DNA of 64,000 bases from an uncultured Propionibacteriaceae bacterium (lineage in GTDB: Bacteria > Actinomycetota > Actinomycetes > Propionibacteriales > Propionibacteriaceae): contig CAUUQR010000002.1 in NCBI GenBank assembly GCA_963547335.1, forward strand, positions 1,182 through 65,181. The letters are read 5' to 3'. Shown here piece after piece: positions 3,996 to 53,559 of this stretch. Every line of letters begins with the position of its first letter. Position 1 is the first letter of the stretch. The notes under the pieces are model-generated. The model made no database searches. It was not told the origin of the DNA and worked only from the letters and a program-made list of their open reading frames with translations. The translations under genes and the position numbers were made by a program.

Positions 3996-4646
3996 TCACG
4001 ATCGCGACTTGCCCGGCCGGTACGCGGAGACGCTCGGCTCACCGGGCAGCCAGAACCGCCACGGAAACCGCTCCCCGTCGCCGCCGGGGCCGGAGACCCC
4101 GACACGTGGCCCGGTGATGGGATCGGGAGGATCGGGTAGGGGCTGATGCCAGGACCACTCACCACCGTTGCAGAGGTCGACACCATCTGTGCTGAGGGTC
4201 GCCCCGAGCGCCTGGGCCAGGTTCCCCGGGCCACGGGCCAGGTGCGTCTCCGGCAGGGGAGTGCGGCGCGGGCGGGTGCTGCGTCGCGAGCGGGCCAGGT
4301 CCGAGCCCATGACCACCTCCCCGGCCCGCAGCAGGCAACCCGTCGGAACCCCAGGCTGATCGCACACCACATTCAGAGCATGATGCATGCCATAGGTGAA
4401 ATAGCAGTAGAGATGCCCGGCCTCACCAAACATCGTGGCGTTGCGTTCGGTCTTGCCCCGGTAGGCGTGGGAACCAGGGTCGATGGGGCCGGCATAGGCC
4501 TCAACCTCTGTGATCCGGATCGCGACGATGCCTTCGAGAGATTCCCGCACCAGCAGGCCCCCCAGCAGCCGGGGCGCCATCTCCAGCACCCCCGAATCGA
4601 AGAAGTCGCGTCCCACACGCCGGTACCCAATCATGCGACCCGTCAT
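3996..4646 (-). CDS. mpg: DNA-3-methyladenine glycosylase (Mpg/AAG family)
   Basis: The run EVEAYAGPIDPGSHAYRGKTERNATMFGEAGHLYCYFTYGMHHALNVV matches the characteristic AAG-family core. Confidence 0.85.
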   Translation of the reverse strand: MTGRMIGYRRVGRDFFDSGVLEMAPRLLGGLLVRESLEGIVAIRITEVEAYAGPIDPGSHAYRGKTERNATMFGEAGHLYCYFTYGMHHALNVVCDQPGVPTGCLLRAGEVVMGSDLARSRRSTRPRRTPLPETHLARGPGNLAQALGATLSTDGVDLCNGGEWSWHQPLPDPPDPITGPRVGVSGPGGDGERFPWRFWLPGEPSVSAYRPGKSRS

Positions 4647-9435: not shown

Positions 9436-11327
9436 CTGATGCTGGGCCGTAACCAGACCGATCCCAGGGGAGGGACTGTGACGTTCGCGCTGGCGGTGAA
9501 GTGGCCCCAGGGCTCCTCTCGTGCGGTGACGACGCCAAGGTTCCCGAAGTCCCCCGAGCCGTCGTAGACCTCGGCGTCGGTGTTCAGGATCTCCTCCCAC
9601 TCCCCGGGCAGGGGCAGGCCAACGTTGTAGTCGTGGATCGGCTCAGGGGAGAAGTTCGTGAAGCAGGCGATGTGGTTGCCTGAGGAATCACTGCGAACCC
9701 AGCTGAGTGTGTTGTGCCCGGCATCGTCGGCATTGATCCAGGAGAAACCCTCAGGGGAGTTGTCCAACTCGTATAGCGCCGGATTGTCGCGGTAGATGGT
9801 GTTCAAGTCCCGGAGCAGTCGCTGCAATCCGCCATGTCCCCAGAGTTCCGACACCCACCATTCCAGGCTGGTGGACTCATTGAACTCGGGACGCTGCCCG
9901 AACTCAGACCCCATGAACAGCAGCTGTTTGCCGGGAAAACTCCACATATACGAATAGAAAGCTCTCAAAGTTGCGAATTTGCGCCAATCATCCTGTGGCA
10001 CCTTGTTGATCATCGATCCCTTGCCATGCACCACCTCGTCATGGCTGATGGGCAGGATGAAGTTCTCCGAGTACTGGTAGACCATCGCGAACGTGAGCAG
10101 ATTGTGCTCATACTGCCGATAGACCGGGTCGAGGGCCATGTAACGCAGGGAGTCGTTCATCCAGCCCATGTTCCACTTGAAGCCGAAGCCGAGGCCGCCC
10201 TCATCAATGGGTTTGGTGACTCCCGCGAAGCTGGTGGACTCCTCTGCGATCATCATCACGCCCGGATGGCGCTCGTACAGGTGCCGGTTCACGTAGCGCA
10301 GGAAGTCAATGGCCTCCAGATTCTCGCGGCCCCCGTACTGATTGGGCACCCACTGGCCCTCCTCGCGGGAATAGTCCAGGTACAGCATGGAGGCGACGGC
10401 ATCGACCCTCAGCCCGTCGATGTGGAACTCGGTGAGCCAGTAGAGCGCATTGGAGACGAGGAAGCTCTTCACCTCGTTCCGCCCATAGTTGAAGATGTAG
10501 GTGCCCCAGTCCTTGTGCTCGCCCTGCCTGGGATCGGCATGCTCATAGAGCGCGGTTCCGTCGAAACGCCCCATGCCCCAGTCATCCTTCGGGAAATGCC
10601 CGGGAACCCAGTCGAGGATCACGCCGATGCCGGCTTGGTGAAGCTTGTCGATGAGATGCCTGAGGTCATCCGGCTTGCCGAAACGGCTGGTGGGGGAGAA
10701 GTATCCTGTGACCTGATATCCCCAGCTGGGCTCAAATGGATGCTCCGACACCGGCATGAACTCGACGTGCGTGTAGCCCTGCCACTTCACGTAGGAGACC
10801 AGCTCCTCCGCCAGATCCAGGTAACTCTTCCCGCGACGCCAGCCGCCGAGGTGCACCTCGTAAATGCTGATGGGCTCCCTGTGGGGGGCTGAGGAGGCGC
10901 GGCGCGTCATCCACTCCTCGTCAGACCAGATGTACTTGGACTCGTAGACGATGGAGGCGTTGGCGGGAGCCTGCTCGGAGAAGCGGGCCATCGGGTCAAC
11001 CTTCTCATGCCATACGCCGTCGGGCCCCTGTATCCGGTACTTATACAGGGTGCCCTCGTCGAGGCCCTCAATGAAGACGCCCCACACGCCGGTTCCCGGG
11101 ATCAGCTGCATCTGATCGCCGGTCCACCAGTTGAAGTCCCCGACCACCTGGACGGCCTGCGCGTTTGGCGCCCAGACTGCGAATCGCACTCCATGCACCG
11201 GGCCTCGCTCATCATCCTCCACGGTGCAGGTGAACGATCCCAGCCGCCTCCAGAGCTCTGTGTCGCCTCCTGTGTGGAACCCCTCCAAGTCCCAGCCGGT
11301 CAGTCCGCCGAAACGGTCGTGTGCCAT
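9432..11327 (-). CDS. glgB: 1,4-alpha-glucan branching enzyme (short form without the N1 domain)
   Basis: The CBM48 region reads VRFAVWAPNAQAVQVVGDFNWW. GH13 motifs are IDGLRVDAVASMLY, MIAEESTSF and ILPISHDEVVHGKGS. Confidence 0.95.
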   Translation of the reverse strand: MAHDRFGGLTGWDLEGFHTGGDTELWRRLGSFTCTVEDDERGPVHGVRFAVWAPNAQAVQVVGDFNWWTGDQMQLIPGTGVWGVFIEGLDEGTLYKYRIQGPDGVWHEKVDPMARFSEQAPANASIVYESKYIWSDEEWMTRRASSAPHREPISIYEVHLGGWRRGKSYLDLAEELVSYVKWQGYTHVEFMPVSEHPFEPSWGYQVTGYFSPTSRFGKPDDLRHLIDKLHQAGIGVILDWVPGHFPKDDWGMGRFDGTALYEHADPRQGEHKDWGTYIFNYGRNEVKSFLVSNALYWLTEFHIDGLRVDAVASMLYLDYSREEGQWVPNQYGGRENLEAIDFLRYVNRHLYERHPGVMMIAEESTSFAGVTKPIDEGGLGFGFKWNMGWMNDSLRYMALDPVYRQYEHNLLTFAMVYQYSENFILPISHDEVVHGKGSMINKVPQDDWRKFATLRAFYSYMWSFPGKQLLFMGSEFGQRPEFNESTSLEWWVSELWGHGGLQRLLRDLNTIYRDNPALYELDNSPEGFSWINADDAGHNTLSWVRSDSSGNHIACFTNFSPEPIHDYNVGLPLPGEWEEILNTDAEVYDGSGDFGNLGVVTAREEPWGHFTASANVTVPPLGSVWLRPSIR

Positions 11328-30506: not shown

Positions 30507-30857
30507 ATGAGATTGCGGGACGAACTGACCGCGCGAATGCGTTTCAACTCCGACGGGCTCGTGCCCGCCGTCGCCCAGGACGCCGAGACCGGTGATGTGC
30601 TGATGATGGCGTGGATGGACTCCGAGGCGCTCGCCCGCACCCTCAGCAGCGGGAGGGCGACCTACTGGTCCCGCAGCCGCCAGAGCTATTGGGTCAAGGG
30701 TGAGACCTCCGGAAATGTGCAACAGGTGGTCTCAGCGCATCTGGACTGCGACGGCGACACCATCTTGTTGCGTGTCCAGCAGACCGGCGCCGCATGCCAC
30801 ACCGGCAACCCGACCTGTTTCTTCACTGAACTCACCAGTCAGGACATTGCATGCTGA
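30507..30857 (+). CDS. hisI: Phosphoribosyl-AMP cyclohydrolase
   Basis: ATG 30507. Motifs are [39 protein letters not shown] and [12 protein letters not shown]. Confidence 0.9.
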
Positions 30858-32347
30858 CCATATCCCCAACCCTCAGCGAGTTCACCGAGCTCGCCAAGAC
30901 TAGGAGGGTCATCAGCGTCCATGCCAGGGTGGTGGCGGATCATCTGACCGCAATCGGCCTGTACGCCACCCTCTGCGGAACTCGGGAGGGAACCTTTCTC
31001 CTCGAATCGGCATCCGAGGGCGTGTGGTCTCGGTACTCCTTCATCGGGGTGAGGGCCGCGGCAACCCTCACCGAACGCGACGGCCGGGCCGTGTGGCTGG
31101 GCAGGGAACTGACGGGCATCGGCAACGGCGATCCGCTGTCAGTGCTGCGTGAGACACTGAGCCAGCTGGCCACCCCAGCCGTCGCAGGTCTGCCTCCCTT
31201 CCATGCCGGTATGGTTGGCTACCTGGGCTATGATGTCGTGCGGCGCCTCGAAACCCTGCCCGACACCTCGGACGACGACCTGCATCTTCCGGAGCTGGTG
31301 ATGATGCTGGCCTCCCAGCTGGCGGTGATGGACCACAAGACCAGCGAGGTCTGCCTGATATCCAACGCCATCAACTTCGACGGTGCCGACGAGGGGGTGG
31401 AGCGCGCCTACCACGAGGCAGTGGCTGGCATCCACGAGATGGCCCGCGCGCTCGGTGAACCCACCCCACCGCTGGTGAGGCCCGCGAGAGACGGGCTGAG
31501 CGAGCTGGAGGTGGTGCGTCAGCGCACCGATGAGGAGTTCGAGGCGACCGTCCGGGATGTGATCGGTGAGATCGAGGCGGGGGAGGCCTTCCAGGTCGTC
31601 GTTTCGCAGCGGTTCGACATTCCCACCGCATCCGATGCCCTGGAGGTCTATCGAGCGCTGAGGGTCACCAACCCGAGCCCCTACCTGTATCTGCTTCGAC
31701 TGCCCGGGTTCGCTGTGGTGGGCTCCAGCCCGGAGGCCCTCGTCACGGTGCAGGATGGGGTCGCAACCACCCGGCCCATCGCCGGATCCAGGCCCAGGGG
31801 CCACACCGAGGCCGAGGACCGTGAGTTTGCCGCAGAGCTGGTGGCCGACCCCAAGGAGAGGGCCGAGCACCTCATGTTGGTGGACCTTGGCCGCAATGAT
31901 CTTGGGCGCATCTGCACACCCGGAAGCGTGACCGTCCACGAGTTCATGCAGGTCCACCGCTACAGCCACATCATGCACTTGGAGGCCGCGGTCAGCGGTG
32001 AACTGGCTGAGGGGCGTTCCGCCCTGGACGCGACGCTGGCATGCTTCCCGGCGGGAACCCTGTCCGGGGCCCCGAAAGTGCGGGCCATGGAGATCATCGA
32101 CTCCTGTGAGGTGAAAAGGCGTGGTCTCTACGGAGGGGTGGTGGGCTATTTTGATTTCGCCGGAAACTCCGATGTCGCGATTGCCATCCGCACCGCCGTC
32201 ATGAAAGACGGTGTCGCCCACGTGCAGGCTGGCGCCGGGATTGTCGCCGACTCAGATCCGGCTTCCGAGAACACCGAGTGCAAGAACAAAGCGGCGGCGG
32301 TGATCACCGCACTCCGGCGGGCCGCGCAGCAAGGAGAGGCATCATGA
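30851..32347 (+). CDS. trpE: Anthranilate synthase component I
   Basis: The chorismate-binding motifs are [12 protein letters not shown] and [21 protein letters not shown]. The start overlaps hisI by 7 nt (ATGCTGA). Confidence 0.95.
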
Positions 32348-33123
32348 CAGTGCTGGATGAGATCATCACCGGAGTTCGGGAGGACCTGGCCGTCAGGCAG
32401 GCCGAGTGTCCGCTAGTTGACCTGATGGAGCAGGCGCGCGCAGTCGAGCCCGCCCGTGATGTCCTGCCATTGTTGCGGGCGCCGGGGCTGTCGGTGATCG
32501 CCGAGGTGAAGCGCAGCTCACCGTCGAAGGGGGATCTGGCGGAGATCCCCGACCCTGCGGAACTCGCGGAGGGCTACGTGGCAGGTGGTGCGGCGGCGGT
32601 CTCGGTGTTGACGGAGCAGCGTCGGTTCAGCGGCTCCCTCCACGATCTGGACATTGTCAGGCAACGGGTTGCGGTTCCGCTGCTGCGCAAGGACTTCATG
32701 GTGGAGTCGTATCAGCTCTACGAGGCCAGGGCGCATGGCGCCGACCTGGTGCTCCTGATCGTCGCAGCTTTGAGTGAGGCGGAGCTGCGGGCCTTCATGA
32801 ACCTCACCGATGCACTCGGGATGACGGCCTTGGTAGAGGCCCACACCGAGGAGGAGGTCGACCGTGCCGTCGAGGTCGGAGCCGGAGTGATCGGCATCAA
32901 CAACCGCAACCTCAAGACCCTAGAAGTGGACATCACCCAGTTCGGGAGGATGGCGGCCCGCATCCCCGACGATCGCATCAAAGTGGCTGAGTCTGGAATC
33001 CTGAGCGTCGATGATGCCAAGCGTGTCCGTGATGAGGGTGCCGAGGCGATCCTGGTGGGGGAGGCCCTCGTCCGGCATGGCGACCCCCGTGCAGCCGTGG
33101 CGGCCTTCCACGAGATCGCATAG
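32344..33123 (+). CDS. trpC: Indole-3-glycerol-phosphate synthase
   Basis: The start forms an ATGA overlap with trpE. Motifs are [20 protein letters not shown] and IGINNRNL. Confidence 0.9.
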
Positions 33124-33185
33124 ACGCCGCTGTCCCTCTTGGACGGTGAGGCGGCGTCCCCGCACATGCCTGTAGGCTGACGCGC

Positions 33186-34424
33186 ATGTTCTCACAGCCC
33201 GACGCCCGCGGCCATTTCGGCCGGTTCGGTGGCACCTTCGTTCCGGAGGCCCTGCGGGCCGCCCTTAGCGAGTTGGAGACCGAGTTCCAGGCCGCTCAGC
33301 GGGATCCGGAGTTCCAGGCTGAGCTGGCGAGGCTTCAACGCAGCTACGCAGGCCGCCCGACACCGGTGACGGTGGCCGAGAATTTCTCCGCGCACTGCGG
33401 GAACGCCACCATCTATCTGAAACGTGAGGACCTCAACCACACGGGTGCGCACAAGATCAACAATGTGCTGGGGCAGGCGCTGCTGACCAGGCGGATGGGT
33501 AAACGGCGGGTGATCGCCGAGACCGGAGCGGGCCAGCACGGCGTCGCCACCGCCACGGCTGCCGCCTTGCTGGGATTGGAGTGCCGGGTGTACATGGGGG
33601 AGATCGACACGAGACGACAGGCCCTCAATGTTGCCCGGATGCAGCTGCTGGGAGCCGAGGTCTACGCTGTCGCGGCCGGTTCCCGCACCCTGAAGGATGC
33701 CATGAACGAGGCTATGCGGGACTGGGTGACCACAGTGGAGACCACCCACTATCTGATTGGGACCGTCGGCGGGCCTCATCCCTTTCCGGTGCTCGTCCGG
33801 GAACTCCAGCGCATCATCTCCACCGAATCACGTCAGCAGATGCTCCAAGAGCACGGCGGGCTTCCCGACTATGTTGCGGCCTGCGTCGGTGGAGGCTCCA
33901 ATGCCATCGGAGTCTTCTATGACTTCATCGGCGACGACTCCGTTCAGCTGTACGGCTTCGAGGCCGGTGGTGAGGGCGTGGAGACGAGCCGTCACGCCGC
34001 GACCATCAGCGCGGGCAGCGTCGGTGTGCTGCACGGGGCGCGCACCCGGGTGCTGCAGGATGAGGATGGGCAGACCATCGAGTCGCACTCGATCTCCGCG
34101 GGTCTGGACTACCCGGGGGTCGGGCCGGAGCATGCATGGCTTGCTGAGACGGGCCGTGCCCACTACGAGCCCGTCACTGATGCGGAGGCGATGGAGGCCT
34201 TCCGTCTGCTGACCCGCACCGAGGGCATCATCCCCGCCATCGAGTCTGCGCATGCCGTGGCAGGTGCCCGCCGCCTCGGGCTCCAGCTGGCTCAGCAGGA
34301 CCCTACCGCCCGCCCCAGGATCCTCGTGTGCCTCAGCGGCCGGGGGGACAAGGACGTCGCCACGGCCTTCGAGCATTTTGGCCTGAGGGGGCAGCCCGAC
34401 AAGACCGTTGGAGGAGCGCCGTGA
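33186..34424 (+). CDS. trpB: Tryptophan synthase beta chain
   Basis: Motifs are [26 protein letters not shown] and GGGSNAIG. Confidence 0.95.
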
Positions 34425-42125: not shown

Positions 42126-43427
42126 GTGTTGAGAACCGTCGATCTGACCGGAGTCAGAAATGATTACCGGAGGTGGATTCCACGGGCGGCCATGGACACC
42201 GCCCAAGCCACTGAGGCCGTTCGGAGCATCTGCGACGACATCAGGGATCGTGGAGCACAGGCACTGGCGGAGTACTCGTCACGGTTTGACCATGTGCTGC
42301 CAGACAGCTTCCGAGTGCCGGATGAGGTCCTGGAGACTGCCGCCGCGGAACTCGACCCCCATCTGCGCTCAGCCTTCGGGGAGGCAATCCGCCGCCGCCG
42401 GCAGGTGGCGGAGAGCCTGGAGCTGGGTCATGACCCAGCGGCTGCCGAGCTGGCTCCCGGCGCACATGTGGGGTTGCGGACCATCCCCGTCGAGCGAGTC
42501 GGCCTCTATGTTCCCGGAGGGCTCGCGCCTCTTGCCTCAAGCGTCTTGATGAACGTGATCCCGGCTCAGGTCGCAGGAGTGCGGGAGATCGCGGTCGCCT
42601 CACCTCCGCAGTCCGCCTTCGGTGGCTGGCCACACCCCAACATCCTGGCGCTGTGCCACCTGCTTGGGGTGGAGGAGGTCTACGCAGTGGGCGGCGCTCA
42701 GGCCATTGCGATGTTCGCCTACGGTGTGCAGGACGTGTGCGCGCCGGTCTCGATGGTGACGGGACCTGGCAATATCTTCGTCGTGGCTGCCAAGAGGCTG
42801 CTGCGCGGCATCGTCGGCATCGACTCGGAGGCCGGGCCGACGGAGATCGCGATCATCGCCGATGACACCGCGAGCCCCGCATTTGTGGCGGCGGACCTGA
42901 TCTCCCAGGCGGAGCACGACCCGATGGCGGCGTCCATCCTGATCACGGACTCGCAAGACCTCGCGATGGCGGTGCAGACCGAGGTGGAACGTCAGGTCGC
43001 GACCACCAAGCACCGGGAGCGCATCCGCACGTCCCTCAGCGGACCTCAGTCGGCGGTGCTGATCGTGCGGGATGTCGGCCAGGCTGTGGAGGTCGCAGAT
43101 GCCTATGCCGCAGAGCATCTGGAGATCCAGACCAGGAACGCGGCAGAGGTGGCCTCCCGCGTCCGCAACGCTGGGGCCATCTTCGTCGGCGACCACTCGC
43201 CGGTGAGCCTCGGCGACTACTCGGCCGGCTCCACCCACGTGCTGCCGACGGCCGGATGCGCCTGTCACAGCTCAGGTCTCAGCGTCCGCTCATTCATGAG
43301 AACGGTCCACGTCATTGACTACTCGGCTCAGGCCCTGGCTGAGGTAGCGGACGGCATCGAGCGGTTTGCGTTGGCCGAGGACCTGCCCGGGCATGCGGCT
43401 GCCATCTCCATCCGGAGGAAGGCATGA
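42126..43427 (+). CDS. hisD: Histidinol dehydrogenase
   Basis: Motifs are [23 protein letters not shown] and AGSTHVLPT. hisC and hisB follow. Confidence 0.95.
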
Positions 43428-44500
43428 GCGCACCTCGCCTGCGTGACGACTTGGCGGGGCAGGAGCCATATGGGGCACCCCAGCTGAATGTGCCCGTGGT
43501 GCTCAACGTGAATGAGAACCCCTACCCCCCGTCGCCGGCCCTCCGGCGGGCGATGGCGGAGGCCATCTACGAGGCTGCGGGCGCCCTGAATCGCTACCCG
43601 GACCGGGAGGCCTGGGAGCTGCGACGGGATCTGAGCCGCTACCTTGGTCATGGACTTGGCCCTGACAATGTCTGGGTGGCGAATGGGTCCAATGAGATCA
43701 TGAGCCAGCTGCTGACCGCATTCGGCGGTCCCGGTCGCAGGATGCTGACCTTCACGCCCACCTATTCGATGTACCCGGAGTATGCGCGGAATTCCTGCAC
43801 CGAGTATGTCACGGTGCCGCGCCGCGAGGATCACTCGGTGGATGCGACACTGGTCCTGGAAGCCGTCGCCAGGCATCAGCCGAGCGTGGTGGCGATCACC
43901 ACACCCAACAACCCGACCGGCACCGGAACCCTCCCCGACGTCATCGACGAGATCTGCGCCGTAAGCGATGCTGTCATCGTGGTCGATGAGGCATATCAGG
44001 AGTTCTCCCGCCAGCCGTCGTCGCTGTCGCTGATCGCCAGGCACTCGAATCTGGTGGTGACACGGACCATGTCGAAGGCTTTCGCCATGGCGGGGGCGCG
44101 GGTCGGCTACCTTGCGGCGTCACAGGAGATCGTGGACGCCTGCAGGATTGTTAGGCTTCCATACCATGTGAGCGTCCAGACGCAGGTGGTGGCGCGCGTC
44201 GCGCTGGCCCATCAGGACGAGTTGCTGGCTCAGGTCGGCGAACTTGCGGAGCAGACCCGTCAGCTCCAGGCCTGGCTGAGCGACAACGGCTATGAGGTGG
44301 TCCCGTCAGAGGCGAATTTCGTGCTCTTCGGCAGGTTTCGGGACCGGCATGCTGTCTGGCAGGCCCTACTGGACAGGGGCATCCTGATACGAGAGACCGG
44401 CCCTGAGGGATTTCTCAGGGTCTCGGCCGGCACGCCAGAGGAGATGACCCGCCTGCGTTCTGCCTTGACGCAAATTAACCCGGAAGGACGGCAATCATGA
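43424..44500 (+). CDS. hisC: Histidinol-phosphate aminotransferase
   Basis: The start forms an ATGA overlap. Motifs are [12 protein letters not shown] and the PLP-Lys region [16 protein letters not shown]. Confidence 0.9.
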
Positions 44501-45105
44501 GCCGCATCGCCACGAAGTCCCGTCAGACCAGTGAGTCGAAGATCAGGGTGACGGTCAATATCGACGGCGCAGGGGCATCCACCATCTCCACCGGGGTCGG
44601 CTTCTACGATCACATGCTCACCGCCCTGGCCAGGCATTCTCTGATCGACCTGGACATCCAGGCGGAGGGGGATGTTGAGATCGACGGTCATCACGTCGTC
44701 GAGGACACTGCCATCGTCCTCGGCCAGGCCCTGGGGGAGGCCCTCGGGGACAAAAGCGGCATCCGCCGCTATGCCGATGCCACGGTTCCCCTGGATGAGG
44801 CGCTGGCGCATTGCGTCGTGGATGTCGCAGGTCGACCGTATGCGGTGTGCAGCGGAGAACCGGAGGGGCAGGCATACGCGCGCATTGGGGGCACCGGGGT
44901 GGTCTACGCCGGCTCCATGACCTACCACGTCTTCGAGTCCCTGGCGTTCAACGCAGGACTGTGCATTCACAGCCGACTGCTCGCGGGCAGGGATCCGCAC
45001 CATATCGTCGAGGCCCAGTTCAAGGCCCTGGCCAGGGCGCTTCGAGATGCAGTCGCCTTTGACCCCAGGGTCTCGGGAGTGCCCTCCACGAAGGGGGCGC
45101 TCTGA
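44497..45105 (+). CDS. hisB: Imidazoleglycerol-phosphate dehydratase
   Basis: The start forms an ATGA overlap. Motifs are [24 protein letters not shown] and [15 protein letters not shown]. Confidence 0.95.
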
Positions 45106-45113
45106 ACCCGAGG

Positions 45114-45731
45114 GTGGGGTTGCTCGACTACGGCTCGGGCAACCTGCACTCCGTTGCCCGTGCGCTGGAGAGCGCCGGCGGTGATGTCCTGCTGTCGGGG
45201 TCCGCGGCGGAGCTGATGCGTTGTGATGCGCTCGTGGTTCCGGGAGTTGGTGCCTTTGCGGCATGCATGACGGGATTGCGCGCCGCCCAGGGAGTGGAGC
45301 TGCTGCGCGAATGGTTGGCCTCTGGGCGTCCGCTTCTCGGCATCTGCGTCGGACATCAGATCTTGTTCGACTCAGGTGACGAGCATGGCCGCATTGCTGA
45401 GGGGCTGGGGGTGTGGCCGGGGGAGGTCAGGCGGCTGGTGGCGTCTCGGCTTCCCCACATGGGTTGGAACACTGTCGATGCCCCCGCAGGTAGCAGGCTG
45501 TTCGACGGCATCCGGGATGAACGGTTCTATTTCGTCCACAGCTACGCAGCCACCCATTTGACGAGCAATCCCGATGTGCCCGGTGAACTCCGGGTCACGA
45601 CCGCACGTCATGGCAGTGCCTTCATTGCCGCCGTGGAATGTGGCAACGTCTATTCGACTCAGTTTCATCCTGAGAAGTCTGGTGCGGCAGGGGCCAGGTT
45701 GCTGCGCAACTGGCTGACGTCAGTCAACTGA
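45114..45731 (+). CDS. hisH: Imidazole glycerol phosphate synthase, glutamine amidotransferase subunit
   Basis: Motifs are LLDYGSGNLHSV, LGICVGHQIL and FHPEKS. Confidence 0.9.
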   Translation: MGLLDYGSGNLHSVARALESAGGDVLLSGSAAELMRCDALVVPGVGAFAACMTGLRAAQGVELLREWLASGRPLLGICVGHQILFDSGDEHGRIAEGLGVWPGEVRRLVASRLPHMGWNTVDAPAGSRLFDGIRDERFYFVHSYAATHLTSNPDVPGELRVTTARHGSAFIAAVECGNVYSTQFHPEKSGAAGARLLRNWLTSVN

Positions 45732-46505
45732 CAGGGCATCTAGCAATTCGGGCAGGCCGACGGCCGCTGTTGTACGCCACGGCAGATGACAGTTCATGCC
45801 GGTTGGTTCGGGGTTGATCTCCGCGACGAAGGAGCCCGCCTGCAGTGCGATTCCCGGCAGGGCTGCTGCTGGGTAGACGATCGACGAGGTGCCCACCACC
45901 AGCGTCAGGTCGGCGCTCTTAGCTGCCGCCACGCTCGCGTCGATGTCGGCTGAGCTGAGGGGTTCACCGAAGAAGACGATGCTCGGTCTCAGATCGCCGC
46001 CGCACATAACGCAGCGGCTCGGGGCAACCCTGAGTTGCGGCTTCTCCGAGGCCTGGGACAGATCTGGGGTTCCTGGACTGCCGCAGTCGATGCAGTGGAA
46101 GCGGTCAAGCCTGCCGTGTAGATGGGCTAGGACCTCGGATCCGGCCCGCTCGTGCAGGTCGTCGATGTTCTGGGTCACGATGTCCAACCGCTCCAGTGAG
46201 GCGTTGGGGCTGCGGCGCCTGGCCCATTGAGCCAGTGCGGCATGCCCTGCATTCGGGGTGGTGGCGGCGACGATCCCGATGCGCCACAGATACCAGGCCC
46301 ACACCAGTTCAGGATCGGCACGCCACCCCTCCTCGGTGGCCATCGCCTCAGGAGAGTACCGTGCCCACAGCCCCGCAGACTCGTCACGGAAGGTCGGCAC
46401 CCCGGACTCAGCCGACATGCCTGCCCCGGTTAGCACCAGCACACGCCGAGCCTGCCTGGCCTGCTCCTCCAGTTCACGCGGCAAGGGATCCCATTGTCTG
46501 CTCAT
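45720..46505 (-). CDS. NAD-dependent protein deacylase (Sir2/CobB family)
   Basis: ATG 46505. Motifs are LTGAGMSAESGVPTFRD, QNIDDLHERAG and HLHG, with the Zn ribbon CIDCG...CVMCGG. Its 3' end overlaps the hisH 3' end by 12 nt. Confidence 0.85.
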   Translation of the reverse strand: MSRQWDPLPRELEEQARQARRVLVLTGAGMSAESGVPTFRDESAGLWARYSPEAMATEEGWRADPELVWAWYLWRIGIVAATTPNAGHAALAQWARRRSPNASLERLDIVTQNIDDLHERAGSEVLAHLHGRLDRFHCIDCGSPGTPDLSQASEKPQLRVAPSRCVMCGGDLRPSIVFFGEPLSSADIDASVAAAKSADLTLVVGTSSIVYPAAALPGIALQAGSFVAEINPEPTGMNCHLPWRTTAAVGLPELLDALSVD

Positions 46506-46534
46506 GGCCCCACTGTGGCACGTCACCGGTCCTG

Positions 46535-47161
46535 ATGAGTGCAAACCCGGATATCCTGACGGCTGTGACGATCCTGCTGACTGGCTTCGAGCCTTTCGCC
46601 GGAGCGGCGAGCAACCCGTCGGAGGAGCTGGTTCGGCGTTTCAGCTCCGAGACGGCAACTGAGGTGCTGCCTGTGGAATTCGAGGCTCTCGGACGACGAG
46701 TGCCGGAGCTTCTGGCCAAGCACCGGCCGCGGCATGTGGTCTGCCTGGGACTTTCGGGGGGAGCGACTGGGCTCACCTTCGAGCGTGTCGGCATCAATCT
46801 GATAGACGCCAGGATCCCGGATAACTCCGGTGCGCAGCCGGTGGATGTGCCCGTCGTGGACTCTGGGCCTGCCGCTCACTTCACGTCGTTGCCTGTCAAG
46901 GCCATGATGAGGGCCGTCCGGAAGGTGGGTGTCCCCGCTGACAGCTCGCTGTCGGCGGGAAGCTATGCCTGCAACGCTCTGCTGTATCTGATGCTGCATC
47001 ACAGCTCACTGGAGCTGGCTGGCAGCCGCTTTCGTGCCGGGTTCATCCACCTGCCGCCTGTCGAGGTCCTGAGCCTTGACGCGCAGGAAAGAGGGCTCAG
47101 AGCTGCGCTGGCAAGAGTTGATGATCAAGAAATGCATTATTCGGAGGGAGCGCTTGATTAG
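46535..47161 (+). CDS. pcp: Pyroglutamyl-peptidase I
   Basis: Motifs are ILLTGFEPF, the catalytic region GSYACNALLY and GFIHLPP. The start is ATG 46535 or GTG 46565. The upstream 113 codons of the tracked ORF are antisense to sir2 and discounted. Confidence 0.85.
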   Translation: MSANPDILTAVTILLTGFEPFAGAASNPSEELVRRFSSETATEVLPVEFEALGRRVPELLAKHRPRHVVCLGLSGGATGLTFERVGINLIDARIPDNSGAQPVDVPVVDSGPAAHFTSLPVKAMMRAVRKVGVPADSSLSAGSYACNALLYLMLHHSSLELAGSRFRAGFIHLPPVEVLSLDAQERGLRAALARVDDQEMHYSEGALD

Positions 47162-47256
47162 ATGTTCGAGGCCTTTTCCTTCACCTCGCGATGCCGAATT
47201 GATCGCGTCCACATCAGTCTGTCACCCAGCCTGGCTTCACGGTAGGGTGTGCCATC

Positions 47257-48003
47257 GTGGAACCTTTGCAACTGTTGCCTGCAGTTGATGTGCAGGATGG
47301 TCAGGCCGTCCAACTCGTCCAAGGAGTCGCGGGAACCCAGAAGGAGTTCGGCGATCCTCTGGCGGCTGCCTTGAGGTGGCAGGAGGAGGGGGCCTCCTGG
47401 ATTCACCTGGTTGATCTTGACGCCGCATTCGGATATGGAACCAATATCCCGTTGCTGGCTGAGATCGTCGCTCAACTTGATATTGATGTGGAGCTTTCCG
47501 GGGGAATACGTGACGACGAGTCCCTCGACCGTGCGCTGGCCACCGGATGCCGTCGAGTGAACATCGGCACCGCGGCATTGGAACGGCCTGAGTGGTGTGA
47601 GCAGATTATCGGCCGTCACGGTGACCGGGTTGCCATCGGCCTTGATGTGCGTGGTGAGCGCCTCGCCGCCCGCGGCTGGACGACGGAGGGCGGGCCCTGG
47701 ACTGAGACCCTGGATCGTCTCGCCGCAGCCGGGTGTTCCCGGTTCGTGGTCACCGACGTCACATCCGACGGCATGCTGACGGGGCCCAACGTGGAGCTTC
47801 TGAGTGCGGTGTGCGCCCGTACCAGCGCTCCTGTCATCGCCTCTGGGGGGATCTCGTCCCTGAAAGACTTGCATGCCCTGCGCGCCTTGGTGCCCGATGG
47901 TGTTGAGGGGGCGATCATTGGAACGGCCCTGTACCTGGGGCGGTTCAGCCTGGCTGAGGCCATCGTCGAGGCGGGTCCGCAGAACGCCGGTGGGAAGGCA
48001 TGA
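47257..48003 (+). CDS. hisA: ProFAR isomerase HisA, probably the bifunctional actinobacterial PriA type
   Basis: GTG 47257. Motifs are [28 protein letters not shown] and ASGGISS. PriA status is inferred only from the absence of trpF in the trp cluster here. Confidence 0.85.
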
Positions 48004-50351
48004 GCGCCCCCCGCACTGCCTTCGGGGCAGCTGAGTCCGTGAGGCTGCACACCCCGCCGCTCCTGACCGGAAGGATCCCAGAGATCCTGGCCGGCAAGAA
48101 GATCGCGATGACAGGGGTCACCGGCTTCATCGGCGAGCAGATGCTCTGGAAGTTCCTCACCGAGTGCCCCGACACCAGAACCGCGGTCCTGGTGCGACGC
48201 AAGGGATCGTTGTCTGCAGCCAGCCGGGTCGCGGCCCTGCTCAGGAAGCCCATCTTCAAGGAGCTGGTGGCCAAGGCCGGTTCCGTTGAGGACCTGATGG
48301 CCAGCCGGATGGAGGTGATTGAGGGCGACTTGCCTGATGTGCCTGAGCTGCCACGCGACATTGATGTGCTCGTGCACTGCGCAGGCGACGTTTCCTTCGA
48401 TCCTCCCATTGACGCAGCCTTCAAGACCAATGTTCTAGGCACCAAGGCCCTGCTGACCCGTTTCAGGGAGTCATGCTCGGATGAGCAGGGCAATCTGGAG
48501 CGCATCCCTCACTATGTCCACATCTCGACGGCGTACACGGCGGGACGGCGACGGGGCCCCATCCCGGAGGCTGCGCACCCACACAATGTCGACTACGAGG
48601 CTGAGACACGTGCGGCGCTGGCTATGACGGACCTCGTCGAGGCCCGCTCTCGCACCTCGAAGCAGCTGACCATTCTCCGCAGGGAGGCGGAGAAGCTGCA
48701 CCGGAGAGCCGGATACCTCACCACCAGCGAGGACACGGAGCGCCGCAGGCTCGAATGGGTGAAGGAGGAGCTCATCGCGGCCGGGACGGAACGTGCTCGG
48801 TCCCTCGGCTGGACTGACGTCTACACCTTCGCGAAGGCGATGGGGGAGGCCGTCGTCGTTGATCTGTGCAAGGACATGAGGGTCTCGGTGGTGCGTCCGG
48901 CGATCGTCGAGTCGTCGCTGCGCTTCCCCCATCCCGGGTGGATTGAGGGCTTCAAGATGGCTGACCCGATCATTCTGGCCTATGGCCGGGGCCAGCTTCC
49001 TGAGTTCCCGGCCTCGCCCGATGCCGTGATCGACATCATCCCCTGCGATTTCGTGGTCAACACCATCGTGGCGGTGTGCGCCACCCAGCCGAAGGTGGGG
49101 GAGCCTGAGTTCTACCACTGCTCCTCGGGAGCCAGGAACCCGCTGACCTTCCGCGGCATCTACGAGCACATCCGGGCCTATTTCTCGCGTCACCCCTACA
49201 CCACAGGTGAGGGCTCCCAGCCGCTGGCGACGTGGAACTTTCCCGGCCCAGAGCCCATCGAGCGCAAGCTCTGGTTCGCAGGCAAGGGTGTCAGCATTGG
49301 GAACCGGCTGCTGAGTTTCGCCCCCCGCGGGAAGAGAACCCTTGAGGCCGCTCGCGCACTCGACAGGACGGCCAAGCAACTCGACTTTCTCAACAAGTAC
49401 CTGCGACTGTACGGCGAATATCTGCAATCCGAGCTGCACTTCGTGGACGACTGCACCCTGGCTCTGCACAACAGCCTCCATGAGGCGGACAAGGAGGTCT
49501 TTGGTTTCGACTCCGCGGCTCTTGACTGGACGAGCTACATCGAAGAGGTGCACACGCCGGCCATCACCGGCCCCATTCGCCGACTGGAGGCGGCCAGGAG
49601 GCGCCGGAAGGCTCGCTCGGCCACCTTCAAGGAACTCAAGCCGGCCAAAGAGCCCGGGACGGTGCTCGCCGCCTTCGATCTCGACGGCACCGTCATGACA
49701 ACCAACGTCATCGAGACTTACCTGTGGCTGCGCCTGCCTGAGCTGTCGTTGGTGGAACGAGCCGGTGAGCTGTTCAAGGTGGCGACCCAGCTTCCGAACT
49801 ATCTCGGAGCCGAACGCAAGGACCGCGGGGTCTTCCTCCGGCAGGTCTACCGCCGCTACGAGGGCGCCAGGCTGGCGGATCTGGAGCGCTTCGTGGATGA
49901 GCGTCTGACGCCATTCGTGCTCGACCGCACCTCTCCCGGAGCGGTCAGGCGAATCCGTGAGCATCGCGATGCCGGGCACACGACCATCCTCATCACCGGG
50001 GTGATCCGCCCGCTGACCCGCCCTTTCGAGGGGCTGTTCGACCACATCGTCGCCGCCGACCTGGCCACCGACGCCGATGGGGTGTGCACCGGCTTCCTGA
50101 CCGGTCCGCCCCTGGTGGGCGATTCACGATCCGCCTGGCTGACCCACTACGCCGGCCTGCACGGCATCAACCTCGACGCCTCATTCGCCTATGCCGACAG
50201 CCACGTCGACCTCCCGATGTTGCGGACCGTCGGCAATCCCGTGGCCGTCAGCCCCGACATCGGATTGATGCGGGCTGCCAAGCAGTCCGGATGGTCGATC
50301 ATCGACTGGCCCTCCAACGCAGTCCAGCCCCGGTGGAGGCTGCCGTCATGA
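48000..50351 (+). CDS. Fusion protein: fatty acyl-CoA/ACP reductase-type NAD(P)-binding domain (NAD_binding_4-like) + HAD-IB phosphatase domain
   Basis: The start forms an ATGA overlap with hisA. N-terminal motifs are [11 protein letters not shown] (GxxGxxG), [19 protein letters not shown] and YTFAKAMGE (YxxxK). C-terminal motifs are AAFDLDGTV (DxDxT), ILITG and [11 protein letters not shown] (HAD-IB motif IV). Confidence 0.75.
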
Positions 50352-51865
50352 GCCGGCCCGGTTTCCTGCTCTACGTGGATGACCAAACCCCACCCCTGAT
50401 CACCCTGGCAGGCAGCAGCGTCAACCTTCAGCAGTTCCCCACAGGCACACGGGTCATCTATCCGCCGGAGGCGATGCCCTCCTCAGACCCCACTGCCCTG
50501 ATCGACCAGGCTCTGGCGACGCCCAGCGGATCCGAGCCGTTGGCGGCCAGGCTGAGACCAGGCATGAGGCTGACCATCGTTGTCGGCAATGTGGACCCCG
50601 TGCAGCCGATGATGCGCTTCGACATTCGCCGCGGCATCGTGGAGCGTGTCCTGGAGCAGGCCGCACGCAGCCGAGTCGATGACGTGTCGATCGTGATCGC
50701 AGGGGGACTCGGCCCACGCTGGAGCAGCCAGGACATTGTCGTCGCGCTCGGCGATCGAGTGGCGTCCTCATTCCTGCCGGATGGGATGATCACCAGCCAT
50801 GACGTCACCGACTCGAGATTGGTGGCAGTGGCCACCGTCGGGAACCATCCCGTGAGGCTGTCCCCGCGCATCGCGACCTCGGATCTGGTGGTGGCCGTGG
50901 ACGTCAGCCACGGGCCGAGACCTCGCTGCCTGCTTGCGGCCGGAGCCACCGACGTGAGCACCATCAACCGGATATCCGGGTTGGAGGGTGGCCACGCGGC
51001 CTGCGGCGAGGTGTCGGCAGCCATCCTGGGCGAGGTGCCGGTTTTCGCCATCACGGCGGTCCTCGGGCAGCCCTTCCTGCAGCGGCCGCTGGGTTTCCTC
51101 AATCGACGGGAATGGGAATGGCGGCTGCCCCAGCAGCTGTCCTACGCCACAGCTCGCCAGTTCGTGGCGGTGATGCCGCGTCAGGGCGCGCAGCGACTCC
51201 ATGGAGCTCCCCTCGCAGACTACGAGCTGTGCGATGTCGTGGGCGGCGATCCCGCCCAGGTTCTGTCACGGGCACACGAGGTGTGGCATGCTGCCAACGC
51301 TGTTCCCGCGTCCCAGTCCCACGTGCTGATCACGTCGGTGTGGGGAAGCAGCTTCGATCCCGGAGATCCGGTCGGCTCACCCATCAGCGCAGCGCACCAT
51401 GCGTTGGTGCGGGCCACGGGCATGGACAGCGACGGCCCCTTGGTGGCGCCTGGCGGATCGGTGGTGGCCTTCCATCCGCTCAGCCGCGTCTTCTCGAATC
51501 GAACCCAGGCCCCGGCATCCGACTTCTTCACCAAGGTCCTCCCCGAGACCCGCGATCCCCGCACCATCCGGGAGAGGTTTGAGGAGCGGGCCTGCACGGA
51601 CACCTGGTATCTGAAGCTCTATCGGGAGCACAATGCCCATCATCCGCTGGCGGTGTTCCACACCTGGTACGCCATTCAGCGGGCCGCCTCCCAGCTAGAT
51701 GAGGTGATCTGGGTGGGTGCGGACCGCACATCAGCGCGGGTTCTGGGTCATCGTGCTGCAACCAGGCTGGAAGATGCCCTTGAGTTGTGCAGGCAGACGT
51801 TGGGGGATGATCTCAGAGCAACCTATCTGCACGCTCCAGGGACCGTCGCAGGGGAGCCACGATGA
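50348..51865 (+). CDS. LarA N-terminal domain (DUF2088)-like protein, divergent
   Basis: The start forms an ATGA overlap. By eye it resembles lactate-racemase-fold proteins: RLTIVVGN.., SIVIAGGLGPR, DLVVAVDVSHG, ITSVWGSSFDPGD. LarA catalytic/cofactor motifs are not obvious. Confidence 0.5.
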   Translation: MSRPGFLLYVDDQTPPLITLAGSSVNLQQFPTGTRVIYPPEAMPSSDPTALIDQALATPSGSEPLAARLRPGMRLTIVVGNVDPVQPMMRFDIRRGIVERVLEQAARSRVDDVSIVIAGGLGPRWSSQDIVVALGDRVASSFLPDGMITSHDVTDSRLVAVATVGNHPVRLSPRIATSDLVVAVDVSHGPRPRCLLAAGATDVSTINRISGLEGGHAACGEVSAAILGEVPVFAITAVLGQPFLQRPLGFLNRREWEWRLPQQLSYATARQFVAVMPRQGAQRLHGAPLADYELCDVVGGDPAQVLSRAHEVWHAANAVPASQSHVLITSVWGSSFDPGDPVGSPISAAHHALVRATGMDSDGPLVAPGGSVVAFHPLSRVFSNRTQAPASDFFTKVLPETRDPRTIRERFEERACTDTWYLKLYREHNAHHPLAVFHTWYAIQRAASQLDEVIWVGADRTSARVLGHRAATRLEDALELCRQTLGDDLRATYLHAPGTVAGEPR

Positions 51866-52602
51866 TCACGTGGCCTGCTGACATGCTGCGGTTCGCCCGG
51901 TCTGGATTCGGCTACGGGCATCGTCGCCCCGAAGGAGCGCCCGAACCCACTGTCCGCCGTCGCGACCGGCTCGGGAGATCTGATCTCAGTGAGATACCAA
52001 ACCTTCTGCACCCGCTGACCTGGCGGTTGGAGTACCGGGTGGCAGGCCTCGACGCGTTGGAGGGCCTGGAGGGGCCGGTGGTCTTCGCAGCCAATGGGCA
52101 GGGGGTGCTCGACTGGCAGGTTCTGAAGGCTGTTCTGCCACCCCGGCTGAGGACCCGGAACCACAATCCCAGCGGTGCCCTCACGCGGGGGCGAAGCGTC
52201 GCACTGTTCTCTGATCCATCCACTGTCGACGGTGGTGTGGGTGAGTTCAGCACCGAGGCCGCTGAGCTCGCGAAGCTTCACGGCATCCCTGTGGTTCCCG
52301 TGGCCATGCTCGGCACCTTCAAGCTGAACGAGGTGCTGCGTCTGGCGCTCAAACGCAGGCCGCGGATCTTCGTCCGCTTCGGCGCGCCCGTGTATGTCCG
52401 GGGCAAGACGCTGGAACGGACAACAAGTGAGCTGCAGGCGGCGGTTGGCGCGCTGTTCCACACGGGAGCGCTGTCCTGGTGGGCTGTTCAGAACCCCGCG
52501 CCACCGCCTGTCACCGAGCCGATGCCCAGGTGGCGGCGTCTGTGGCAGCAGACCACGCCTCGTGAACCATCCGCCGGCCGCATCTGGGTTCAGGAACGCT
52601 GA
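51862..52602 (+). CDS. PlsC/AGPAT-fold acyltransferase-like protein lacking the HX4D histidine
   Basis: The start forms an ATGA overlap. The motif-I position reads VVFAANGQGVLD, versus the canonical NHxSxxD. The motif-III position reads FSDPST, versus FPEGT. Motif IV, GIPVVPVAM, is retained. Confidence 0.55.
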   Translation: MITWPADMLRFARSGFGYGHRRPEGAPEPTVRRRDRLGRSDLSEIPNLLHPLTWRLEYRVAGLDALEGLEGPVVFAANGQGVLDWQVLKAVLPPRLRTRNHNPSGALTRGRSVALFSDPSTVDGGVGEFSTEAAELAKLHGIPVVPVAMLGTFKLNEVLRLALKRRPRIFVRFGAPVYVRGKTLERTTSELQAAVGALFHTGALSWWAVQNPAPPPVTEPMPRWRRLWQQTTPREPSAGRIWVQER

Positions 52603-52611
52603 GGAGGTCCC

Positions 52612-53559
52612 GTGGAGCCATATGTCGAAGGACACCTGCACTGGCGTTTCCTGACCATGGATGACTGGGACGAGGTCACGGGCCTGCGTGCTCAGCTCGC
52701 AGCCCTGGACGACTCCCTGATGCCGGCCATTGACCGCGTCGTTGGAGTCGACTTCGATCTGCAGGAAGCCGATGCCGTCGGCGGCTGGGACTCCTACGGA
52801 AGTCTCCTGGCATTCGGATGCTCCTTCCGGGCGCCGGAGCCGGATCCGTTGCGCATCTATCTCATCGGTGGGGTGCATCCGACACATCGCTACCAGGGCA
52901 TCGGGAGCGCCCTGTTGAGCTGGCAGGAGCAACAGGCCATCGCCTGGCGTGATGAACACCGTCCGGGGGAGGAGCTCTGGCTGGGCTGTTACGGGGAGAT
53001 GCTGCAGCCCGGGCTGCAGCGTTTGTTGGAGAGCAGGGGGTTCACGGTGGAGCGGTATTTCATCGACATGCACCGCAACCTGGACCAGCTGCCCCACCCG
53101 GCTGAGATCCCGGGAATCCACTTCGAGATCTTCACTGAGGGGCTGAGTTCCCAGATCCTGACTCTGCACAACGCATGCTTCACATCCTCGGTGTCGGAGC
53201 AGGCGTGGCGGGAATCACTTCAGGCCGACACCTTCAGGGCTGACTGGTCGTGGGTTGCGCTTCAGGACGGGGAGGTCGTCGGGTATTGCCTCTCCGGCAC
53301 TGATGACGGAGCCGGCCTGGATGGGGTCATGGAAGGCTGGTGTGATCGTCTGGGGGTGGCTGATGGTCACCGTCACCGTGGTGTGGCTCAGTCTCTCCTT
53401 GCCCGGGCTATGCACTCGATGGCCGATTCCGGCTGCCCGGCGGCGGGCATCGGCGTCGACACCAGGGACAAGGCTGCGGCTGACTGGCTGAACCGCGTCC
53501 TGGGCTATGAGGTCCGTGATGGCGTGACCCTCTACGTCAAGGGCATCCCCGCTCAGTGA
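52612..53559 (+). CDS. Two-domain GNAT N-acetyltransferase (MshD-like architecture)
   Basis: GTG 52612 is preceded by GAGGAGG, 9 nt after the upstream stop. Two acetyl-CoA motif-A-like segments are present: HPTHRYQGIGSALL and ADGHRHRGVAQSLL. Confidence 0.7.
   Translation: MEPYVEGHLHWRFLTMDDWDEVTGLRAQLAALDDSLMPAIDRVVGVDFDLQEADAVGGWDSYGSLLAFGCSFRAPEPDPLRIYLIGGVHPTHRYQGIGSALLSWQEQQAIAWRDEHRPGEELWLGCYGEMLQPGLQRLLESRGFTVERYFIDMHRNLDQLPHPAEIPGIHFEIFTEGLSSQILTLHNACFTSSVSEQAWRESLQADTFRADWSWVALQDGEVVGYCLSGTDDGAGLDGVMEGWCDRLGVADGHRHRGVAQSLLARAMHSMADSGCPAAGIGVDTRDKAAADWLNRVLGYEVRDGVTLYVKGIPAQ

Follow-up and report, generated by a model that had tools for sequence, protein, structure and literature searches.

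A candidate reduced Elb-like module in a Propionibacteriaceae bacterium joining a fatty-acyl reductase::HAD-IB fusion to degenerate LarA-like and AGPAT-like proteins

The ether-lipid operon elbABCDE of Myxococcus xanthus (MXAN_1531 to MXAN_1527, PMC13012113; MIBiG BGC0000871) is compared here with a three-gene module of an uncultured Propionibacteriaceae bacterium. The module occupies positions 48000 to 52602 of a 64,000-nucleotide stretch of contig CAUUQR010000002.1 (assembly GCA_963547335.1, positions 1,182 to 65,181 of the forward strand; this whole stretch is called the window) and encodes a fusion of a fatty-acyl reductase (FAR) with a HAD-IB phosphatase, a LarA-fold protein, and an AGPAT-fold protein. 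In the case of M. xanthus, ElbB is a HAD phosphohydrolase, ElbD combines acyl-CoA synthetase (ACS), acyl carrier protein (ACP), FAR-like, and AGPAT-like domains, and ElbA and ElbE are short-chain dehydrogenases/reductases (SDRs); ElbC had no assigned function even in a 2022 review (PMC9131029). According to the same review, alkyl and vinyl ether lipids are strongly reduced when elbD is lost, and loss of AGPS has a minor effect. Elb-like clusters have been reported from Acidobacteriota, Proteobacteria, and Poribacteria by means of ElbD queries, some of them holding only elbD and elbB. We propose, with a probability of about 0.5, that the window carries a reduced and re-wired Elb-like ether-lipid module in which FAR::HAD-IB would be the catalytic core and the LarA-like and AGPAT-like proteins would be conserved pseudoenzymes. 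So read, it is a variant of a system that is already known though poorly understood.

The link to elb runs through the LarA homologues (LarAH) classified by Desguin 2020 (PMC7583248). MXAN_1529 was assigned to LarAH group 15 in the supplement of that study, and since elbA to elbE run from MXAN_1531 to MXAN_1527, MXAN_1529 is ElbC. The gene context given there for group 15 (COG0451, COG0560, and COG1022) fits elbA/E, elbB, and elbD. For group 14 (Frankia, Rubrobacter), the recorded neighbours are AGPAT (88%), HAD-IB (88%), COG1063 (88%), and thioester reductase (50%); for group 15 (myxobacteria), SDRs, HAD-IB, and acyl-CoA synthetase; and for group 16 (Frankia, Microlunatus), in which K184 is lost, AGPAT (100%) and HAD-IB (100%). 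All three groups were marked as of unknown function, and LarAH14 had been inactive on the substrates assayed in earlier work. Unlike the present analysis, the table does not tie LarAH14–16 to lipids or to elb, and in the literature searched no paper was found that joins LarA or DUF2088 to acyltransferases or acyl-CoA reductases. The original prediction, made from the letters of the window, knew of no characterised system in which such enzymes are combined with a LarA-fold protein. That claim is not supported, as elbABCDE contains one, ElbC, beside ElbB and ElbD; the analogy to ether lipids and Elb proteins drawn in the same place pointed in the right direction. It was also proposed that the pathway is undescribed. 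The neighbourhoods of LarAH groups 14 and 16 with AGPAT, HAD-IB, Zn-dehydrogenase, and thioester reductase had already been tabulated in the supplement of PMC7583248.

The three genes of the module are chained to each other and to the preceding priA gene by 4-nt ATGA overlaps at 48000, 50348, and 51862, as seen in both ORF coordinates and sequence, and GGAGG-like sites precede the last two junctions. The first gene (48000..50351, plus strand, as are all genes of the module) encodes the 783-aa FAR::HAD-IB fusion. Its reductase domain (48111..49550) consists of NAD_binding_4 at residues 38–356 (E = 1e-44, 152.8 bits) and FAR_C/Sterile at residues 457–517, the latter scoring 33.8 bits, slightly under the cut-off of 35.4. 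Residues 26–524 match a fatty acyl-CoA reductase structure (PDB 7eoz, E = 1.8e-48). With the Rossmann GxxGxxG, the catalytic S/T within STAY, the YxxxK in the form YTFAK, and FAR_C, the domain has the make-up of alcohol-forming fatty acyl-CoA reductases (PF07993 plus PF03015). The HAD-IB phosphatase domain (49665..50309, residues 556–770) was identified by Pfam (PF12710, E = 4e-32), by a match of the same residues to the HAD-IB protein of PDB 3fvv, and by TIGR01488, where the score of 45.0 bits equals the cut-off; with TIGR01490 it reaches 93.6 bits, below the cut-off of 98.3. It carries the DxDxT nucleophile motif as FDLDGT, the motif II Thr in LITG, and the motif IV acidic residues in YADSHVD. 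All of these motifs, which the original prediction had quoted but for LITG, are kept in 72–73 of 73 orthologues; the nucleophile Asp is conserved in 73 of 73, and at Asp+2 only D or E occurs.

The second gene (50348..51865) encodes the 505-aa LarA-fold protein. Its mechanical ORF opens further upstream, with GTG at 50084, but all homologues begin with MSRPGF at ATG 50348, which is therefore taken as the true start. The protein matches Lar_N (Pfam, 1e-10) and NCBIfam NF052592, the model of LarAH14/15/16, with 312.7 bits, mainly by its C-terminal half and under the cut-off of 740; the Kribbella orthologue scores 908 bits. The AlphaFold model (pLDDT 92.1) shows the two-domain LarA fold, and the top 19 PDB matches in Foldseek are all LarA-family proteins (best TM-scores 0.69–0.77). 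Equivalents of D72, R75, H108, H174, K184, and H200, the positions involved in binding of the nickel-pincer nucleotide (NPN) and in catalysis, are missing from the residue table of the window protein: D72 is replaced by N, R75 by P, and H108 by Gly (GGLGPRW), K184 has given way to a gap or Cys, and the His-rich segment with H200 is deleted. H174 is absent throughout LarAH groups 14–16. The window protein resembles the group-16 form, which includes MLP_28440 of Microlunatus (Propionibacteriaceae), recorded without K184 and with AGPAT and HAD-IB neighbours; in comparison to the listed group-16 members, D72, R75, H108, and H200 are lost in addition. It retains the C-terminal-domain positions (..D W Y. 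L Y) that Desguin tabulated beside the catalytic and cofactor residues, and it may for this reason still bind a ligand. We presume it to be a pseudoenzyme or a partner subunit.

The third gene (51862..52602) encodes the 246-aa AGPAT/LPLAT-fold protein. Its match to PF01553 (21.3 bits) stays under the cut-off of 23. The assignment comes from its being the positional orthologue of clear AGPATs in 80 of 80 loci, and from a model (pLDDT 75.8) whose best Foldseek match is PlsC (5KYM, E = 9e-7, but with a TM-score of 0.45), followed by PatA, GPAT1, and LpxM. The domain assignments of the original prediction (fatty-acyl reductase, HAD-IB, and LarA-like) proved correct, that of the AGPAT/PlsC fold being probable, and its description of the last protein as His-less was right: HX4D reads NGQGVLD. 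Moreover, block II is deleted and EGTR is reduced to SD-PS (FSD-PS in place of FPEGTRS). The protein is basic and retains block IV and a Trp/Arg-rich C-terminal tail. This tail, WW...P.RWRRLW.QT.P (52440–52602), is near-invariant in degenerate AGPAT-like proteins and occurs also in intact AGPATs (positions ~10300–10513 of the Kribbella locus L022, in our numbering of loci). Binding to the membrane or to a partner may be its role. Transmembrane helices were sought in all three module proteins and none was convincing, and transmembrane anchoring was rejected.

To study the distribution of the module, an alignment of the LarA-like protein was used as query against the species genomes of GTDB. This gave at least 586 relatives, of which 80 loci were examined. 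In 80 of 80 loci, the gene directly downstream of the LarA gene encodes an AGPAT homologue, and FAR::HAD lies upstream in all 78 with enough flank, so that the three genes are co-conserved outside this genome, in agreement with the test that the original prediction had set. The co-occurrence exceeds chance by far. A single ORF joins FAR and HAD in 82 of 85 loci. Among the taxa that carry the module are Nocardioides, Kribbella, Frankia, Streptomyces, Actinomadura, Actinoplanes, Haloechinothrix, Thermomonospora, and Jiangellaceae. Beyond this core, none of the flanking genes was universal among the loci examined, the recurring ones being hisA/hisF, yebC-ruv, MarR, and larBCE.

Two types of cluster were distinguished. 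In type A, to which the majority of loci belong, a Zn-dependent medium-chain dehydrogenase/reductase (MDR) of ~400 aa, of the polyol/threonine-dehydrogenase kind, is encoded between the HAD and LarA genes. This dehydrogenase adjoins the LarA gene in 62 of 81 sources (the 80 genome loci and the window) and is absent from the entire clade of the window. The type-A LarA homologue passes the NF052592 cut-off with the D72, H108, K184, and His-rich (H200) positions intact, and the type-A AGPATs carry NHxSHLD, FNxFPIxR, FPEGTRS, and VPVVPV. In 14 type-A loci (L027, L034, L039, L054, L055, L058, L065, L066, L071, L072, L075, L078, L081, and L086), homologues of larC (PF01969), larB (PF00731), or larE (PP-loop) stand beside the module, and 11 of them have all three. 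Their presence beside FAR::HAD, LarAH14, and AGPAT genes ties nickel-pincer chemistry to a lipid-type operon. No larB, larC, or larE was found by tblastn in the 64-kb window (E ≤ 0.01) or in the type-B flanks. A MarR-family regulator gene recurs shortly downstream of the AGPAT gene in the Kribbella loci L022, L025, L026, L029, L031, L032, L035, L046, L050, and L064, and also in L087; control of the type-A cluster could be the dedicated task of its product.

Type B comprises the window and 16 other loci, all devoid of the dehydrogenase gene. The LarA-like proteins of this type lack K184 and the His segment and mostly H108 too, and the NGQGVLD, the loss of block II, and the FSD-PS are features of the AGPAT-like proteins in the inner clade of the window. 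In L017, a degenerate LarA is paired with an intact AGPAT, and L021, L070, and L048 are intermediate, which points to stepwise decay. In a neighbour-joining tree of FAR::HAD, from which the truncated type-B locus L060 was left out, the type-B loci form one clade nested in Propionibacteriales, beside Kribbella and Nocardioides. The pattern has exceptions. The LarA proteins of L087 and L041 lack NPN ligands and yet the Zn-dehydrogenase is kept, while in L034 and L055 of Streptomyces the LarA is intact and no dehydrogenase gene separates HAD from LarA; a strict coupling of dehydrogenase loss with NPN-ligand loss was considered and is weakened by these four loci. Taken together, the module of the window is best explained as a Propionibacteriaceae-specific reduced form of a larger, Actinomycetota-wide operon. 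This goes beyond the original prediction, as does the finding that the LarA-like protein of the window has lost all cofactor ligands.

The loss of ligands is seen in the wider family as well. In an exhaustive profile search, which returned 309 cluster representatives at E ≤ 1e-30 (50%-identity clusters), 53 of the 88 full-length ElbC/LarAH14–16 representatives among the best 150 were without both K184 and H108, and 26 of 88 kept both. NPN-ligand-free members thus appear to be common and highly diverged. In L087 (3344–9624), a ligand-free LarA-like protein belongs to a cluster that is complete, having both the dehydrogenase and an AGPAT recognised by Pfam. Ligand loss has therefore arisen more than once, and losing the dehydrogenase is not a precondition for it. 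A cofactor-independent role of ElbC-type proteins, in addition to any other, is suggested by this.

The rates of evolution were compared between the genes and between the two types. For the least saturated pair, L008–L009, dN/dS is 0.045 for FAR, 0.055 for HAD, 0.164 for LarA-like, 0.146 for AGPAT-like, and 0.10 for hisA; the ranges are 0.03–0.09 for FAR::HAD, 0.13–0.22 for LarA-like, and 0.08–0.18 for AGPAT-like. These values show purifying selection, and the degenerate LarA-like and AGPAT-like genes are therefore not pseudogenes. Both are full-length and free of frameshifts throughout the family-level clade, and the ATGA coupling is retained in the nearest relatives L001–L009. The LarA-like proteins of both types share the invariant residues HD (151–152), REWEW, DF, and W..LYR...H. 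In type-A pairs, LarA is the best-conserved protein of the cluster, with 75% identity at about 63–64% FAR::HAD identity, whereas type-B pairs of equal FAR::HAD distance show 39% identity for LarA and 29% for AGPAT, so that the relative rates are reversed. Relative to FAR::HAD, the LarA-like and AGPAT-like proteins evolve 2–3 times faster than in type-A clusters. The fusion stands out as the slowest-evolving gene of the module and as the sole component whose catalytic motifs are seemingly intact. On this sequence record, the module would be a clear case of two enzymes of one operon turned into conserved pseudoenzymes next to an intact partner.

The locus was then set against the known systems. 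With residues 1–399 of ElbC as query, BLASTP gave 50% identity to the Kribbella LarAH14 (E = 2e-137) and 29% to the LarA-like protein of the window (E = 2e-34), which falls within the clade of LarAH groups 14, 15, and 16 (NF052592). The window module thus has the LarA-family ElbC homologue of an Elb-type cluster and, by domain label, the FAR-like reductase, AGPAT-like acyltransferase, and HAD phosphohydrolase families of the elb operon. The HAD-IB domain would be the counterpart of ElbB, the likeness being one of label, as ElbB is placed in the COG0560 class by the context table of Desguin. That the elb operon is an AGPS-independent route was counted as a further likeness. Unlike elb, the module has no ElbD-type multidomain protein: AMP-binding (acyl-CoA synthetase) and ACP domains are missing, the reductase and the AGPAT-like protein are encoded by separate genes, and the reductase is fused to HAD and not to the acyltransferase. 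SDR genes of the ElbA/E type are absent as well, full actinobacterial clusters having the Zn-MDR dehydrogenase instead, and the LarA-like and AGPAT-like members of the window are without catalytic residues. Searches based on ElbD would miss the actinobacterial clusters because these lack the ACS-ACP part.

Other systems share fewer of these features. The FAR1/GNPAT/AGPS pathway of eukaryotes and myxobacteria, including the FARAT fusions of M. xanthus (MXAN_1675) and Tetrahymena, also joins a FAR, an acyltransferase of the PF01553 family, and a later phosphatase step in the formation of alkyl-glycerolipids. It differs in that no AGPS homologue is present in the module or its conserved flanks, that the FAR has another fusion partner, FARAT included, and that the acyltransferase of the window is degenerate. 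HAD-IB has also been joined to AGPAT itself, as in Rv2483c. Such fusions, which the original prediction had named for mycobacteria, are indeed documented in Actinomycetota, for instance as 'PlsC-like' proteins in R. jostii RHA1 (PMC10351704). Their pairing of HAD with PF01553 is that of the window and points to a lipid phosphate as the HAD substrate; unlike them, the HAD domain of the window is fused to a reductase and its acyltransferase is a separate gene, and the 'PlsC-like' genes adjoin WS/DGAT and acyl-CoA synthetase genes, not LarA homologues. The best structural matches of the LarA-like protein are the single-histidine LarA_Sp and LarA_Bw (PDB 9q3k and 9q3j, TM-scores 0.69–0.77), which also lack the second catalytic His. 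Unlike the window protein, both bind NPN and have retained the Lys tether, one catalytic His, and the Ni-binding His. They are encoded in a context of carbohydrate metabolism, and their identity to the window protein is 16–19%.

The evolutionary anatomy of the module is well supported; we infer its ether-lipid output and the partner-subunit role of the two degenerate proteins. In the proposed mechanism, the FAR domain would reduce a long-chain acyl-CoA or acyl-ACP to a fatty aldehyde or alcohol, the alkyl chain would become ether-linked to a backbone derived from glycerol phosphate, and the fused HAD-IB domain would strip the phosphate to give an alkyl(acyl)glycerol for glycolipids of the kind known from Arachnia propionica. 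The lineage of the window has lost the dehydrogenase gene, the NPN-binding and catalytic residues of the LarA-like protein, and the HX4D and EGTR of the AGPAT-like protein, and both proteins would now serve as non-catalytic partners, the AGPAT-like one attached peripherally to the membrane via its basic Trp/Arg tail, with translational coupling maintaining their stoichiometry. Circumstantial support for the lipid product comes from A. propionica, a close relative, which carries a type-B module with a FAR::HAD 88% identical to that of the window, a LarA-like protein with H108 replaced by S and no K184, and an AGPAT-like protein without a Pfam match. Its glycolipids are sugar derivatives of glycerol alkyl ethers (Pasciak et al. 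2003, JBC 278:3948, as cited in PMC11237483), and Cutibacterium acnes has alkyl-ether phosphatidylglycerol (PMC11237483). The lipids of A. propionica fit a FAR supplying the alkyl chain and a phosphatase giving a glycosylatable alkylglycerol, which is not proof that the module is responsible for them.

Several points weigh against an ether-lipid module built in this way. No candidate catalyst of the ether bond is identifiable in the window. The lipid output is argued from the lipids of a relative and from elb genetics, not from genetics of the actinobacterial copies, and the ethers of A. propionica could stem from a different pathway, for example one with PlsA/R or Ger-type enzymes. In M. xanthus, the requirement for ElbC was never demonstrated and the effects of elbB insertion were ascribed to polarity (PMC9131029), and many elb-like clusters are without elbC. 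The homology of ElbB and ElbD to the HAD, FAR, and AGPAT domains of the window rests on domain and COG labels. Finally, the loss of canonical residues does not prove that all activity is gone.

One alternative is that all three proteins are active with non-canonical residues, the LarA-like protein cofactor-free or with a non-covalent cofactor and the AGPAT-like protein with another base, which would make a complete new three-enzyme lipid pathway. The purifying selection on both degenerate genes, the many invariant polar residues common to types A and B (HD151–152, REWEW, and W..LYR...H), the large share of NPN-ligand-free representatives (53 of 88), and their occurrence in an otherwise complete cluster such as L087 are all in keeping with it. 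We regard it as unlikely, because all six NPN and catalytic positions are lost together with the HX4D His, block II, and EGTR, and because a 2–3-fold acceleration is more readily explained by relaxed constraint than by a new active site. At the other extreme, the two genes could be functionless relics nearing deletion, with FAR::HAD alone of importance, as the missing catalytic residues and the fast evolution might suggest. Full-length, frameshift-free genes across the clade, dN/dS values of 0.08–0.22, the ATGA coupling kept in L001–L009, and the near-invariant motifs make this the least credible of the explanations considered.

Two further alternatives retain the catalytic core and change its product. 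The FAR, with the architecture of alcohol-forming reductases, might supply fatty alcohol for wax esters, and the HAD-IB domain might be a phosphatidate phosphatase of a Kennedy-type route to storage or neutral lipids, a function that has been proposed in Actinomycetota for HAD::AGPAT fusions beside WS/DGAT (PMC10351704). Since no WS/DGAT gene is found among the conserved flanking genes, the LarA family is tied to the elb ether-lipid operon, and the closest named relative has documented ether glycolipids, we consider this rather improbable. The priA overlap could instead be functional, the HAD-IB domain being the histidinol-phosphate phosphatase of the organism; the 4-nt overlap itself, the position of the Kribbella module between hisA and hisF, and the presence of HAD-IB histidinol-phosphatases among the best named NCBIfam relatives (E ~1e-19) would agree with that. 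With their models NF052359 (cut-off 400) and NF052360 (cut-off 280), however, the domain scores 71.5 and 69.3 bits, and FAR is its fusion partner in 82 of 85 loci, mostly away from his genes. It was rejected as the principal explanation and is very improbable. The original prediction saw a coupling to histidine biosynthesis, and this is positional only: hisA is directly upstream in the Propionibacteriaceae clade and Kribbella, that is, in 25 of 78 loci, plus the window, with the same 4-nt overlap at 4459–4462 in Kribbella L022. The priA linkage appears to be an inherited, lineage-specific gene order and not a sign of shared chemistry, and it probably causes co-expression.

For the reduced Elb-like module proposed here, the bond-forming chemistry of the fuller clusters can be sketched on a speculative and rather unlikely footing: ElbC or LarAH14, together with FAR, HAD-IB, and AGPAT, might perform AGPS-independent alkyl-ether formation by transient nickel-pincer oxidation or hydride shuttling on the glycerol-phosphate backbone, the Propionibacteriaceae module being a natural, minimal, nickel-free version from which ether glycolipids would still result. 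If true, a window-type module would tell the essential parts (FAR::HAD) from the parts turned into scaffolds. How the ether bond is formed without AGPS in the predominant bacterial Elb route has been a question since 2014, and the module may give insight into a bacterial ether-lipid synthesis that bypasses this classical enzyme. Three connections are made here: between ElbC and the nickel-pincer LarA family, between the elb system and an Actinomycetota-wide operon that is often found beside larBCE, and between a naturally reduced variant and the cultivable A. propionica with its chemically defined ether glycolipids. The question thereby becomes addressable by knock-outs, heterologous expression, and cofactor analysis. 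Environmental surveys of ether lipids query ElbD or AGPS, and the actinobacterial clusters would escape them. The module doubles as an example of pseudoenzyme evolution within one operon.

The genes on either side of the module were considered to be outside it. Downstream, a two-domain GNAT acetyltransferase (52612..53559, plus strand, Pfam Acetyltransf_1) starts with GTG 9 nt past the AGPAT-like stop, with a GGAGG within that gap; this spacing and the three ATGA overlaps are as the original prediction had reported them. Of the 15 type-B genome loci with downstream flank, 10 have a GNAT gene flanked by yebC and the AGPAT-like gene, and no type-A locus has one; being found in some type-B loci only, it was not accepted as a module member. 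Identification with MshD was also rejected, as the architecture is alike but the score is 24.7 bits against a cut-off of 163. Upstream, priA (47257..48003, plus strand), the bifunctional hisA/trpF gene, was identified by TIGR01919 (356 bits, cut-off 306). No hisF or hisI follows it in the window, and Kribbella has hisF just past the module. The run of his genes is broken at 45720–47161, where a SIR2-family deacetylase gene (minus strand, ~45720–46505) and a pyroglutamyl peptidase gene (Peptidase_C15, ~46535–47161) form an insertion between hisH and priA; the Pfam labels of both come from contig L001, which is identical. About 8 kb upstream of hisD-hisC-hisB-hisH (42126–48003, up to priA) lie trpE, trpC, and trpB (30851–34424).

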